Positions 52,191-59,343 are shown, counted from the stretch's first letter. The stretch is DNA of 64,000 bases from an uncultured Chloroflexia bacterium (GCA_963745295.1 CAVUWG010000003.1:259537-323536); one strand, 5' to 3'. The notes: generated by a model not told the origin, from the sequence alone. Made by a program: numbers and translations.

Positions 52191-53069
52191 TCAGGCGGGC
52201 TGCGCGACCGCCAGGGATTCGATGAAGCGCCTGCGCCAGGCCTCGGTCGCCCTGACGTTGTTGAACGTGTACAGGTGCAAGTCCACGACGCCAGCCACCG
52301 GGTCGGCGACGATCGGGGCGAGGCCCTCGAGGAGGCCGTCTGGCCGGTAGAAGCCGCCTGACCGGATCAGCCGCGCGACGAACCGCGCGTTCTTCGTCAG
52401 GAAGCGATGCGTGTCGGCGACGCCGATGCGGGCCGTGATGGCCAGCAGCTTGTGCGGCTCCGCGACCCCAGGCAGCCCGATGTGGACCGGCAGCGCCAGC
52501 CCCTCGGCGCGGCGGGCGGCGAGCCACGAGCCGATGGCCGTCGGATCGAAACAGAGCTGGGTCGTCATGTAGCTCGCGTAGGCGGCCTTGTCGCGCAGGG
52601 CCTCGGCGATCGGCGCGTCCGGGATGAACGGGTGACCCTGCGGGTAGCACGGGATGCCGATCTCGGCGAGCGGGTGGCCGATCTCCGCCATCTCCCGAAG
52701 CAGCGACAGGCCGTCCGGGAACTCGCCCGGCTCCTTGGCGTCGCCGCCGACGACGAAGGCACGATCGACGCCCGCGCCCTCCAGCCAGGCGATCAGGTCG
52801 CGCAGGTGGGCGCGGTCGCGGACCATCCGGGCCGACACGTGCGGCACGGCCCGGAAGCCGCGCGCCTGGAGCGCCTCGCACAGGGCGATCGTCGCCTCGA
52901 TGCCCTTGGCCGGCGACGCCGTCACGGACACCGTCGCGCCCGCCGGCAGGTCATCGGCGTGGCCGAGGGCGTTCTTGAGCGGGACGAGCTCGAAGGTCGG
53001 CGCCGCGAGGACGCGCGCGAGTGCCCGGCGCTCGCCGGTCCCCAGCCGGCGGTGGCGCCGGAACAGCAC
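52191..53069 (-). CDS. metF: methylenetetrahydrofolate reductase (MetF family)
   Basis: ..FELVPLKN.., ..VTASPAKG.., ..PHVSARMV.., ..AFVVGGD.. and ..GIPCYPQGHP... TIM-barrel MTHFR pattern. GTG 53069 lies 2 nt after the MttB stop. Confidence 0.8.
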   Translation of the reverse strand: MLFRRHRRLGTGERRALARVLAAPTFELVPLKNALGHADDLPAGATVSVTASPAKGIEATIALCEALQARGFRAVPHVSARMVRDRAHLRDLIAWLEGAGVDRAFVVGGDAKEPGEFPDGLSLLREMAEIGHPLAEIGIPCYPQGHPFIPDAPIAEALRDKAAYASYMTTQLCFDPTAIGSWLAARRAEGLALPVHIGLPGVAEPHKLLAITARIGVADTHRFLTKNARFVARLIRSGGFYRPDGLLEGLAPIVADPVAGVVDLHLYTFNNVRATEAWRRRFIESLAVAQPA

Positions 53070-53071
53070 GC

Positions 53072-54611
53072 CTAGACCTCGGAGTCGGGCATCGAGGCCT
53101 TGCGCTTGACGATGAACTCGAGCAGGGCTTCGTCGATGGCGTCGTCCATCGGCGGCGCCTCGTACTCGGCCAGCATCCGCTTCCAGATCGTGTTCGCCCG
53201 CTGCGCCGCGTCGAGCGAGCCGTCCTCCTGCCACTGCTCGAAGCTGTTGTTGTCCGCGATGTCGGAGCGATAGAAGGCGTTCTCGAAGTTCGCGAGCGTG
53301 TGCGCGGTGCCGAGGTAGTGCTGGCCCGGCTCGTTGGTGAGGATCGCGTCGAGCGCCTGCCCGTTCTCGGACAGGTCGACGCCGTTGACGAAGACCGTGG
53401 CCATGCCGCACTGGTCAGCGTCGAGGATGAACTTCTCGTAGCCGACCGCGAGGCCGCCCTCGAGCCAGCCGGCGGCGTGCAGGACGAAGTTGACGCCACC
53501 GAGGATCGTCGCCGAGAAGGTCGCGGCGGACTCGTAGGCGGCCTGGGCGTCGGGGATCTTCGAGGCGCACAGGTTGCCGCCCGAGCGGAACGGCACACCG
53601 AGCCGTCGGGCCAGCGCCGCCATCACGTACAACACGAGCGAGGGCTCCGGTGTCCCGAACGTCGGCGCGCCCGACTGCATCGACATCGACGAGGCGAAGC
53701 TGCCGAGCACGACCGGCGCGCCCGGCCGGACCAGCTGCACGAACGTCATCCCGCCGAGCGCCTCGGCGAGGGTCTGCGTGGCCGTGCCCGCCACCGTCAC
53801 CGGTGACATCGCGCCGGCCAGGATGAACGGCGTCATCAGCGTCGCCTGGTTGGCCTCGGCGTAGGCCCGGGCGGCCCCGAGCATCGTCGAATCCCAGACG
53901 AGCGGGGAATTGGCGTTGATCAGCGAGAGGATGACCGCATGGTCCTCGAGGTACTCCGCGCCGAACAGGATGCGGGCCATCTCGACGGTGTCGCGCGCGC
54001 GCTCGGGCGCGGTGACCGAACCCATGAACGGCTTGTCGCTGTAGCGCATGTGGGCATAGACCATGTCGAGGTGGCGCTTGTTGACCGGCACGTCGACGGG
54101 CTCGCAGACCGTGCCGCCCGAGTGGTGCAGGTTGGGGGAGAGGTAGGCCAGCTTCACGAAGTTGCGGAAGTCCTCGATCGTGCCGTAGCGCCGGCCGCGG
54201 TCCAGGTCGCGCACGAAGGGCGACCCGTAGTTGGGCGCGAAGACCGTGTGCATCCCGCCGATCTCGACGTTGCGTTCCGGGTTGCGCGCGTACTGGGTGA
54301 ACTGGCGTGGCGCGGTCGCCTGGACGATCTGGCGGCACATGCCCGCGCGGGAAGCGGACCCGTTCGCCCTGGACGTCGGCACCGGCGTCGCGGAACAGGC
54401 GGAGGGCGTCGGCGTCACCGCGGAACTCGAGGCCGACCTGCTCGAGGATCGTGTCCGCGTTGTCCTCGATGAGCGAAAGCCCCTCCTCGTCGAGCACCTC
54501 GAACGGGGCCAGCTTCCTGGTCAGGAACGGGACGTGCTCGGCGTGGGACAGGAGGCGGGCGGCCTGTCGCGCGGCACGTCCGCCGGTGCGGCGTCGCGGG
54601 TTGTCGTCCAT
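53072..54611 (-). pseudogene. MttB-superfamily (trimethylamine methyltransferase family) corrinoid methyltransferase, non-pyrrolysine type, one frameshift as sequenced
   Basis: The N-terminus MDDNPRRRTGGRAARQAARLLSHAEHVPFLTRKLAPFEVLDEEGLSLIEDNADTILEQVGLEF..GERVRFPRG is in the ORF 53415-55622 frame. After a junction near 54343 it continues as MCRQIVQATAPRQFTQYARNPERNVEIGG...TPFILAGAMSPVTVAG...SGAPTFGTPEP... in ORF 53072-54418. No in-frame TAG. Confidence 0.85.
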
Positions 54612-57984: not shown

Positions 57985-57986
57985 CG

Positions 57987-58658
57987 TCAGCGGACCATCG
58001 TGATGACCGAGTCGACGTGGGCGGGGCCGGCCACCGAGGTCGCCGCGGCGATCGACGTCGCGAGTTCCCCGTAGCCGGTCCGGCGCAGCTCGAAGCGCAG
58101 GCCCAGGCGACGGGCGCCGCGCCGGGCGGCCGTGACCAGTGCCGGGTCGTCGGTCTGGGCGAGGTAGACGAGTCGCTCGTAGTTGCCGAAGTACGTGGCG
58201 AGCAGCTCCGGGTGGCGGTCGAGGCCGAGCCCCTCGATGACGAGCCGGTCGAAGTTGCGGGCCAGGAAGTCGGTCAGGAAGAACGTCGCCGGCTCGTCCG
58301 CGGTCAGGCGCGCGAAGTCCGGCCGGCCGGCGTAGAACTCGTAGCAGTGGGCGCCGGGCAGGCGCTCGACGCCGGGTTCATCGGCCAGGGCCACGTCCAG
58401 GAGCCCACCCGTGCCGCAGTCCGCGTAGGCCACGAAGACGCGGTCGTAGCCGGCGCGGCGTCGCCGGATCCGGTCGCGCACGGCCTTGGGGATGCCGCCC
58501 GGGCGGTTGTGGAGCGTGGCCGGCAGGCAGGTGATATCGACGTTGGGCAGGCCGCGGGTCAGGTCCACCAGCTCGCGCGCGAGCGCGCCACAGCCGACGA
58601 TCAGGACGCGCGGGGCATCCGTGTCGGCGTCGGTCGTGGTCCTAGGCGACGCGGGCAC
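57987..58658 (-). CDS. DUF1638 domain protein
   Basis: ..RVLIVGCGALARELVDL...DITCLPATLHNRPGGIP...VAYADCGTGG...GAHCYEFYAG...FLTDFLARNFD. Start set at GTG 58658 (17-nt overlap with the corrinoid protein gene); uncertain. Confidence 0.7.
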   Translation of the reverse strand: MPASPRTTTDADTDAPRVLIVGCGALARELVDLTRGLPNVDITCLPATLHNRPGGIPKAVRDRIRRRRAGYDRVFVAYADCGTGGLLDVALADEPGVERLPGAHCYEFYAGRPDFARLTADEPATFFLTDFLARNFDRLVIEGLGLDRHPELLATYFGNYERLVYLAQTDDPALVTAARRGARRLGLRFELRRTGYGELATSIAAATSVAGPAHVDSVITMVR

Positions 58659-59343
58659 GGCGTTCGTCGATGAGACGACGGGCCGTCTCCGCGGCCACGC
58701 CGGCGTCGCGACAGTAGGCATCGGCGCCGACCGCGAGCCCGAACTCCTCGTTGAGCGGCGCGCCACCGACGAGGACGATGTAGTCGTCGCGCATCCCGCG
58801 ATCCTTGAGCGTCTGGATCACGACCTTCATGTACGGCATCGTGGTCGTGAGGAGCGCCGACATGCCCAGGATGTCCGGCTTGTGCAGGTCGAGTGCGGCC
58901 AGGAACTTGTCGGCATCGGTATTGATCCCGAGGTCCACCACTTCGAAGCCGGCACCCTCGAGCATCATCCCGACGAGGTTCTTGCCGATGTCGTGGATGT
59001 CGCCCTTGACCGTGCCGATGACGACCTTGCCGACGGGCTCGGCGCCGGTCTCCGCGAGCAGCGGCCGCAGGATGGCCATGCCGGCCTTCATCGCGTTCGC
59101 GGCCAGGAGGACCTCGGGCACGAACAGGATGCCGTCGCGGAAGTCGATGCCGACGATCTTCATGCCGGCGACCAGCGCGTCGTCGAGGACCCGGGTGGCC
59201 GAGAAGCCGCGGCCGAGCAGGATGTTCGTGCCCTCGACGATCTCGTCCTTCATGCCGTCGTAGAGGTCGTTGTGCATCTGCTCGACGAGCTCGTCGTCGG
59301 ACAACGCCGCGAGATCGATATCCGCGTACTCGTCCTGCGTCAT
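58642..59343 (-). CDS. corrinoid (cobalamin-binding) protein
   Basis: B12-binding cap plus Rossmann domain. ..GTVKGDIHDIGKNLV gives DxHxxG, plus ..MSALLTTTM.. and ..VLVGGAPL.. Start at ATG 59343 (MTQDEYADIDL..). Confidence 0.88.
   Translation of the reverse strand: MTQDEYADIDLAALSDDELVEQMHNDLYDGMKDEIVEGTNILLGRGFSATRVLDDALVAGMKIVGIDFRDGILFVPEVLLAANAMKAGMAILRPLLAETGAEPVGKVVIGTVKGDIHDIGKNLVGMMLEGAGFEVVDLGINTDADKFLAALDLHKPDILGMSALLTTTMPYMKVVIQTLKDRGMRDDYIVLVGGAPLNEEFGLAVGADAYCRDAGVAAETARRLIDERRARVA

Follow-up and report, generated by a model that had tools for sequence, protein, structure and literature searches.

What substrate is demethylated by a corrinoid-dependent methyl-transfer operon that lies among aerobic-type genes, how is its corrinoid kept active, and is the operon intact? 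These questions are raised by seven minus-strand genes at positions 52191–59343 of a 64,000-nucleotide stretch of DNA from an uncultured Chloroflexia bacterium, the whole of which is called the window here. The operon is built on a homologue of the trimethylamine methyltransferase MttB. We consider it likely to be an aerobic-type, cobalamin-dependent quaternary-amine:tetrahydrofolate (THF) methyltransferase system of the MtgBCD kind, with glycine betaine as the most probable substrate. From the corrinoid-protein gene to the MTHFR gene, the operon contains:

58642–59343, minus strand: MtgC-like corrinoid (cobalamin-binding) protein with a DIHDIG motif (Pfam PF02310 and PF02607)
57987–58658, minus strand: DUF1638 protein, 223 residues, with four invariant cysteines (PF07796, E 2e-26)
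57613–57984, minus strand: small PF13769 "virulence factor" protein, 123 residues (PF13769, Virulence_fact, E 3.5e-20)
56711–57616, minus strand: MtgD-like pterin-binding methyl-corrinoid:tetrahydrofolate methyltransferase (Pterin_bind, E 3e-27)
54611–56698, minus strand: RACo/RamA-type ATP-dependent reductive activase (Fer2, RACo_linker, Raco_middle and RACo_C_ter)
53072–54611, minus strand: non-pyrrolysine MttB homologue (MtgB-like), 512 residues once corrected (PF06253, in two frames)
52191–53069, minus strand: divergent methylenetetrahydrofolate reductase (MTHFR), 292 residues (Pfam E 1e-5; PDB entry 7xg9, E 1e-36)

The genes are tightly packed. In the order given, the six junctions are a 17-nt overlap, a 2-nt gap, a 4-nt overlap, a 12-nt gap, a 1-nt overlap and a 2-nt gap. 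Gene starts were taken from the list of open reading frames (ORFs) and from the gene calls on contig L083 (ENA ERZ25039591 contig_67494, 898 kb), which is 99.4% identical to window positions 49987–64000. Every domain assignment is supported by Pfam, that of the MTHFR weakly, and both the gene content and the spacing agree with the original prediction made from this DNA.

The PF06253 match of the MttB homologue is split, with profile positions 1–85 located at 54611–54336 (E 8e-22) and positions 83–500 at 54418–53072 (E 2e-203). The corrected 512-residue product aligns end to end with PDB entry 4yyc (E 1e-225), its closest solved structure, and both contain the active-site segment AGWLEGGL. Entry 4yyc, a "putative trimethylamine methyltransferase", is from what we take to be S. 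meliloti; no published function or ligand for it was found in the searchable literature. Neither frame segment contains an internal stop and there is no in-frame UAG. The pyrrolysine (X) of Methanosarcina barkeri MttB (PDB entry 7xcl), a protein of the same PF06253 family and fold, aligns with Leu347 of the window protein, confirming the predicted place in the non-pyrrolysine branch. The match to 7xcl has an E-value of only 1e-27, and the NCBIfam model for true MttB (TIGR02369) gives 257 bits, with a cut-off of 525. With this score and no pyrrolysine codon, an identity as true trimethylamine methyltransferase was rejected.

The corrinoid protein consists of a B12-binding Rossmann domain, in which the DxHxxG motif is translated as DIHDIG, and a helical cap domain. 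Its best NCBIfam models are those of MtgC, with scores below the cut-off, and it is 73–74% identical to proteins of S. meliloti, Azoarcus and Terrarubrum. The pterin protein scores 369 bits against NCBIfam PRK07535, the methyl-THF:corrinoid methyltransferase domain (cut-off 259), and is 66–75% identical to S. meliloti and Azoarcus proteins. In the activase, the N-terminal 2Fe-2S ferredoxin, linker, middle and ASKHA ATPase domains are all matched; its best NCBIfam model, AcsV, stays below the cut-off, and its identity to proteobacterial ASKHA proteins is 59–65%.

A system with the same component list is known from aerobic hosts, namely R. pomeroyi, P. inhibens and S. meliloti; in R. pomeroyi, proteomics and knockouts have shown it to be the basis of glycine betaine breakdown (PMC12478193). 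In Ruegeria pomeroyi, MtgC and MtgD are indispensable both for making methionine and for growth on glycine betaine (Mausz et al. 2025, PMC12478193), while two PF06253 proteins, MtgB1 and MtgB2 (Q5LRL7 and Q5LRJ3), RamA, the DUF1638 protein and MetF2, a second MTHFR, show induction with glycine betaine, with choline and with carnitine (PMC12478193). In S. meliloti and many marine bacteria the homologues form gene clusters (PMC12478193). Since the R. pomeroyi system was described in 2025 (PMC12478193), an aerobe that demethylates betaine by a corrinoid-dependent route has ceased to be a novelty, and the earlier statement that non-pyrrolysine MttB systems are known from anaerobes has to be widened. 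The six components of that system (MtgB, MtgC, MtgD, the RamA-like activase, DUF1638 and a second MTHFR) are all present in the one window operon, five of them 55–75% identical to their S. meliloti and Azoarcus counterparts. The R. pomeroyi genes are scattered, whereas those of the window lie together beside a regulator of the IclR family. The hosts differ as well, being proteobacterial in the one case and a soil or freshwater lineage of the Chloroflexota (Limnocylindria) in the other, and MtgE is absent from the window.

The two proteobacterial clusters that were compared contain relatives of six of the seven window proteins, at 41–75% identity; the MttB homologue itself is 68–69% identical to its S. 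meliloti and Azoarcus counterparts (tblastn and blastp). In S. meliloti the order is ASKHA, hypothetical, MtgD, MTHFR, MetV-like and "virulence factor", followed further on by DUF1638, B12-binding and MttB, then by bmt and finally by an ABC ATPase. The compact operon of Azoarcus sp. KH32C runs from the corrinoid protein through DUF1638, virulence factor, MetV, MTHFR, pterin methyltransferase and ASKHA to a glycine betaine binding protein.

Among GTDB species representatives, no fewer than 588 genomic stretches encode a relative. The closest genomes are metagenome-assembled genomes (MAGs) of 'Candidatus Limnocylindrales/Limnocylindria' (Chloroflexota), with MttB identities of 85–95%, followed by Gaiellales, Thermoleophilia and other Actinomycetota at 76–78%; on these figures an actinobacterial origin of the window was rejected. 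The gene-neighbourhood survey for which the original prediction called found DUF1638 and the small protein beside MttB homologues many times over: the seven-gene order is kept in about 50 loci of Limnocylindria, Gaiellales and other Actinomycetota, which is essentially every locus long enough.

The original prediction left the substrate as unknown, which now appears too pessimistic. MttB orthologues 68–78% identical to the window protein adjoin betA and betB, a choline-binding protein, glycine betaine ABC transporters, sarcosine oxidase, ETF and a GcvT-domain FAD oxidoreductase that is probably dimethylglycine dehydrogenase. In Azoarcus, the MttB gene (69% identical) is located between folD/ETF-QO and the choline-binding protein, betA and betB, while the operon from MtgC to RACo has on its flanks ProVW, a glycine betaine binding protein, ETF and the GcvT-domain FAD oxidoreductase. 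In S. meliloti, a stretch of about 12 kb holds the MttB gene together with the rest of the system; continuing past the MttB gene, one reaches bmt after about 6 kb and a glycine betaine/proline ABC ATPase after about 9 kb. Genes for SoxA/G (sarcosine oxidase alpha/gamma), SoxB (beta) and an OpuAC binding protein adjoin the operon in some Actinomycetota loci, and Limnocylindria loci carry ETF and a GMC oxidoreductase.

A glycine betaine site has been experimentally defined in D. hafniense MtgB, where it is formed by Y97, R312, H348 and F356 (PMC13080624). The D. hafniense MtgB/MtgC/MtgA system (PDB entries 2qne and 9yce; PMC13080624) resembles that of the window in its MttB-superfamily TIM barrel, in the Leu at the pyrrolysine position and in the transfer of the methyl group via a corrinoid protein to THF; it differs in belonging to an anaerobe and in a corrinoid protein of a different lineage (PMC12478193). 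In the alignment, Y97, R312 and H348 correspond to Y128, R342 and H378 of the window protein, so that three of the four site residues are kept. Because of the neighbours of the orthologous loci, together with these three residues, glycine betaine is the best-supported substrate, and by this analogy we judge it probable for the window MttB homologue; the genomic context is more telling on this point than the residue motif.

Several observations weigh against glycine betaine. The fourth site residue, F356, is replaced by Gly386 in the window protein, as in 4yyc (AGWLEGGL versus AGILQYFM in D. hafniense MtgB); a Trp is present four residues upstream of Gly386. The identity to the characterised D. 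hafniense enzyme is only 44%, and R312 and H348 are also retained by enzymes for other acidic quaternary amines (PMC13080624). The clade contains no assayed enzyme, the R. pomeroyi MtgB assignment being from proteomics and not from knockout or biochemistry, and aerobes have up to seven MttB paralogues with substrates unassigned (PMC12478193). No opu, bet, sox or dimethylglycine dehydrogenase gene is found among the window ORFs scanned, and the nearest transporter in the window is a Liv-type ABC system (Peripla_BP_6 binding protein and LivHM-type permeases), not Opu. The replaced F356, the low identity, the two shared residues, the paralogues and the transporter would suit the same architecture acting on another substrate, such as proline betaine, carnitine, gamma-butyrobetaine, choline or phosphocholine, dimethylglycine, or an N-methyl amino acid imported by the Liv-type transporter. 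We think such a substrate rather unlikely. Apart from the conspecific contig L083, only one more distant relative (L006) has the Liv-type system beside the operon, and the system was rejected as part of the unit on that ground. Orthologues at 68–78% identity are repeatedly flanked by betAB, OpuAC, ProVW and Sox. In both S. meliloti and P. methylovorus, moreover, the orthologue of the window protein is the MttB copy that is physically linked to MtgC and DUF1638.

It is also conceivable that the operon is the core of a split methionine synthase, with MtgC and MtgD working in reverse to feed a homocysteine methyltransferase encoded elsewhere and betaine demethylation being secondary. MtgC, MtgD, RamA and DUF1638 are indeed essential for methionine synthesis in Phaeobacter and Ruegeria. 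The operon, however, encodes an MttB-type donor methyltransferase and an MTHFR and no homocysteine-binding protein, and a tblastn search of the window with MetH revealed no homocysteine-methyltransferase domain. Four Limnocylindria relatives have, near the operon, a complete MetH with its own reactivation domain. A methionine synthase role for the window operon is thus improbable in our view. As assembled, the mttB gene is interrupted by the following feature:

54341–54344, minus strand: single-base insertion (GGG for GG) in mttB (from alignment to relatives and L083)

The frameshift, which had been placed near 54343, is one extra base in the run CGCGGGCATG; a frame segmentation based on third-position GC content (GC3) puts the change of frame at 54339/54340. 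Within CGCGGGCATG, each of the 30 aligned relatives is shorter by exactly one base. The corrected junction, ...VRFPRGMCRQIVQ..., set by the relatives as …GMC-RQ…, matches ...VHFPKGLCRELLK... of 4yyc. Contig L083 has GG where the window has GGG, and its mttB is called as an intact gene of 512 residues. The two sequences differ by ten single-base indels, of which those in mttB and in a binding-protein gene at about 61497 break window genes relative to L083; an indel of L083 itself, at about 55289, coincides with its truncated RACo gene call. Both mttB halves have a strong coding signal and full Pfam coverage. At least four further single-base frameshifts split contiguous Pfam domains in the window, or a gene that is intact on L083:

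~6481, minus strand: frameshift in 3-hydroxyacyl-CoA dehydrogenase
~13779, plus strand: frameshift in class II fumarase/aspartase-type lyase
~22449, plus strand: frameshift in SDR
~61497, plus strand: frameshift in Peripla_BP_6 binding-protein gene, intact on L083
~2182 and ~1775, minus strand: membrane GGDEF-like protein, probably split twice

Most of these sites coincide with or adjoin a short run of G or C. To find at least five frameshifts in 64 kb, none of them shared between assemblies, is the signature of consensus errors, and the Flye-style contig names suggest long-read assemblies. That mttB is truly frameshifted, the operon being in decay or the shift programmed, has in its favour that the extra base is present in the assembled window sequence. 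Against it stand the intact gene on L083, the absence of the base from all 30 aligned relatives, the preserved coding signal of both halves, the other frameshifts in ordinary genes of the window and the private RACo frameshift of the sister contig, which fits the same error pattern at short G/C runs. A true frameshift is therefore very improbable: programmed shifting is disfavoured because no relative conserves the shift, and both a programmed +1 frameshift and a pseudogene were rejected on the privacy of the extra base. Since L083 and the 30 relatives do not have it, and since the window contains other private frameshifts, the mttB frameshift can almost certainly be put down to faulty assembly, and the operon, which the original prediction had allowed might be dead, is not. 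In this assembly, a frameshift of one base is to be taken as an artefact and not as the mark of a pseudogene.

In the closest species representative, L005, the MttB match spans 1537 nt and splits at about 8146, which suggests that its mttB is frameshifted as well. Elsewhere in the window, at 17721–20870 (plus strand), an APC-type amino acid/polyamine permease is followed by a glutamine-synthetase-like gene, with about nine frame changes in 3 kb at a GC content of 0.68; the stretch has either many assembly errors or is a decayed locus. It is followed by SDR and aldehyde dehydrogenase genes at 22–25.6 kb.

With an intact MttB homologue, the glycine betaine system could work as follows. The MtgB-like protein would take up glycine betaine in the pocket of its TIM barrel, methylate the Co(I) corrinoid carried by the MtgC-like protein and release dimethylglycine. 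The MtgD-like enzyme would then transfer the methyl group from methyl-Co(III) to tetrahydrofolate, and the divergent MTHFR would oxidise methyl-THF to methylene-THF for oxidation or assimilation of the one-carbon unit. Corrinoid oxidised to Co(II), presumably a frequent event in an aerobe, would be re-reduced by the RACo/RamA-type activase at the expense of ATP, with the DUF1638 and PF13769 proteins as accessory parts of the reactivation module; expression would be controlled by the IclR regulator via a GTTCCAC-N3-GTGGAAC palindrome. The route from an N-methylated substrate via methyl-corrinoid and methyl-THF to methylene-THF is that of the original prediction, which we judge to be correct.

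The DUF1638 protein is 55–59% identical to proteins of S. meliloti and Azoarcus (and Terrarubrum). From Chloroflexota to Proteobacteria, the same four cysteines and two histidines occur without variation (in the motifs CGA, CLPAxxHN, DCGTGG and HCY), and because of this conservation across phyla a metal or Fe-S site at these residues is suggested. In Phaeobacter inhibens, the split methionine synthase requires a RamA-like protein and a DUF1638 protein, and loss of the latter leads to methionine auxotrophy (Price et al. 2018, PMC5764234). DUF1638 and RamA co-occur across Alphaproteobacteria, with matching phylogenetic profiles (PMC5764234). The two accessory genes had been predicted to be uncharacterised, which does not wholly hold for DUF1638 and does hold for PF13769: no mention of the family was found in the searchable literature, the window gene has no counterpart mentioned in PMC12478193 or PMC5764234, and no "virulence factor" gene is named in PMC12478193. 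The AlphaFold2 models of the two proteins are of moderate confidence, with predicted local distance difference test (pLDDT) scores of 79 (DUF1638) and 80 (PF13769). Foldseek searches of both models against the PDB gave no match at E<0.01 (best E 0.016 and 0.027, with TM<0.35), there is no sequence match of either to a solved structure and NCBIfam has no model for DUF1638 or PF13769.

The PF13769 protein is 41–48% identical to its counterparts in S. meliloti and Azoarcus (and Terrarubrum) and belongs to a family that forms about 980 clusters when grouped at 50% identity; most members are stand-alone proteins of 100–140 residues. On the complete plasmid NZ_CP091854.1 of Terrarubrum flagellatum (L085, 8992–11274), a 760-residue "virulence factor" is a PF13769-Fer2-RACo fusion, and its gene is located directly after those for the B12-binding and DUF1638 proteins. 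The same fusion is present in the independent representatives P0312 and P0319, DUF1638-PF13769 fusions are found in P0313, P0269, P0361 and P0135, and a PF13769-Pterin_bind fusion in P0246. Some of these fusion proteins are metagenome gene calls and could be artefacts, which is a point against relying on them. In Azoarcus, the PF13769 gene likewise directly follows that for DUF1638. Ten Actinomycetes loci are without DUF1638, which would lie between the genes for the corrinoid protein and the pterin methyltransferase, and nine of the ten keep PF13769.

Fusion P0135 (343 residues) is from the closest species representative, L005, where DUF1638 and PF13769 are called as one protein at about 3873–5000; this could be a real fusion or an indel error in a long-read MAG. 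The Actinomycetes MAG loci without DUF1638 include L057, L059, L069–L073, L077 and L079, with L071 also lacking PF13769. In several of them, and in neighbouring Actinomycetota loci, sarcosine oxidase genes follow the operon, and some have OpuAC before it. In R. pomeroyi, SPO1861 (Q5LSA7), an uncharacterised protein encoded beside metF2 and mtgD, is induced in two of four N-osmolyte treatments with a log2 difference of about 3–4 (PMC12478193 Dataset S1); it might be a PF13769 or MetV-like partner.

Because PF13769 is fused elsewhere to RACo, DUF1638 or the pterin methyltransferase, it is placed in the corrinoid system, and these sequence data are best read as assigning both PF13769 and DUF1638 to the module that reactivates the corrinoid. 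The name "virulence factor" therefore appears to be a misnomer. More tentatively, oxygen-exposed bacteria may reactivate their corrinoid with a module of RACo, the cysteine-rich DUF1638 protein and PF13769, and not with RACo/RamA alone, PF13769 serving as an adaptor that docks the activase or an electron donor onto the corrinoid protein; we regard this extension as possible, if still doubtful.

For the MTHFR, the only PDB match below E 0.01 is 7xg9 (E 1e-36), the S6MTHFR of Sphingobium lignivorans SYK-6. The latter is a type-4 enzyme that oxidises methyl-THF and partners THF-dependent demethylases (PMC11868366); the Leu48-Pro49, Arg78 and Pro268 motifs of this type exclude NADH (PMC11868366). 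Like S6MTHFR, the window MTHFR would be coupled to a THF-dependent demethylase; the partners of S6MTHFR are LigM, DesA, CmuAB or Dmt, not an MttB system (PMC11868366). The type-4 signature is missing from the window protein: relative to 7xg9, L48 is replaced by S, R78 by M, P268 by T and C219 by I, while P49 and F269 are kept. This counts against the proposed pathway, and an identity as type-4 S6MTHFR was rejected on these residues. Because they are missing, the argument for the oxidative direction is one of context, and it is from pathway logic and the R. pomeroyi MetF2 that we infer it. The S. meliloti and Azoarcus clusters encode a canonical MTHFR (MetF) with a MetV-like (DUF5981) subunit (L081, 5443–7118; L084, 9336–10825), and to this MetF the window protein shows no match at E<1e-5. 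Going by these comparisons, the window MTHFR and the proteobacterial MetF/MetV pair are not orthologues, and the former looks like a non-orthologous replacement of the latter.

Upstream of the corrinoid-protein gene, two further features are located:

59442–60194, plus strand: IclR-family regulator, 250 residues, divergent from the operon (HTH_IclR and IclR_C; start from the L083 gene call)
59372–59408, no strand assigned: candidate operator, inverted repeats on GGTTCCAC / GTGGAACC (inverted-repeat search)

The divergent IclR gene is kept in this position in about 35 Limnocylindria loci, with 58–91% identity, and is the probable regulator of the operon. The 98-nt region between the two genes holds the inverted repeats, which contain the palindrome GTTCCAC-N3-GTGGAAC (GGTTCCAC-N3-GTGGAACC). 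Of the 63 loci that exceed 9 kb in length (62 related ones and L083), at least 24 have the palindrome in this place between the two genes, those having it lying within L004–L078 and belonging to Chloroflexota and Gaiellales. The palindrome is a candidate IclR operator. A promoter-like TGGACA-18-TAGATT sequence, a consensus match only, is present just upstream of the palindrome (minus strand, 59448–59419). No cobalamin riboswitch or other RNA element was matched by Rfam across 49–64 kb of the window, and no intrinsic terminator was found 3' of the MTHFR gene.

The surroundings are high in GC (about 0.70–0.72) and of aerobic type, as had been predicted. A PaaA_PaaC epoxidase subunit is encoded at 8350–9393 (Pfam), and a Rieske CxH...CxxH motif was read from the translation at 15613–15678. 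The epoxidase subunit lies in a phenylacetate catabolic cluster (6700–12362, minus strand), where the genes beside it resemble enoyl-CoA hydratases by translation. By its sequence the Rieske protein looks like a small bc1/b6f-type protein. A betaine/carnitine-type oxygenase was rejected for it, on its small size, the bc1/b6f-like context of the motif and a translation in which no oxygenase domain was seen (no Pfam scan was made).

Directly downstream of the operon, a gene at 49722–51995 (minus strand) encodes a 757-residue surface protein with VWA and DUF11/CLIPPER repeats, which is 85% conserved in L005 and is not conserved in other relatives. At 41996–48640 (minus strand), a run of sulfur and Fe-S genes encodes an Rrf2 regulator, an ABC ATPase, a class-V aminotransferase/cysteine desulfurase, a large protein without a Pfam match, NifU_N and a rhodanese-ThiF fusion; this run appears to be unrelated to the operon.

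What is new here is modest: the link of PF13769 to the corrinoid system, the apparent MTHFR replacement, the candidate IclR palindrome, and the extension of the system's range to lineages of Chloroflexota and Actinomycetota that are represented here by MAGs only. The fusion and synteny evidence gives the orphan families DUF1638 and PF13769 a testable function and argues for renaming the "virulence factor". If the three-part reactivation module is real, it would explain how a Co(I)-dependent pathway keeps running in aerobes. The compact single-operon form, with regulator and putative operator, is a convenient unit for heterologous reconstitution. In routine annotation these genes are named "trimethylamine methyltransferase" and counted as a marker of anaerobic methylotrophy (e.g. 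PMC11264602), a reading that is probably wrong for these lineages. With glycine betaine as the substrate, aerobic B12-dependent demethylation would extend from marine Proteobacteria to Limnocylindria, Gaiellales and other Actinomycetota, implying a role in osmolyte turnover and in cobalamin demand in the soils, sediments and waters from which these genomes come.

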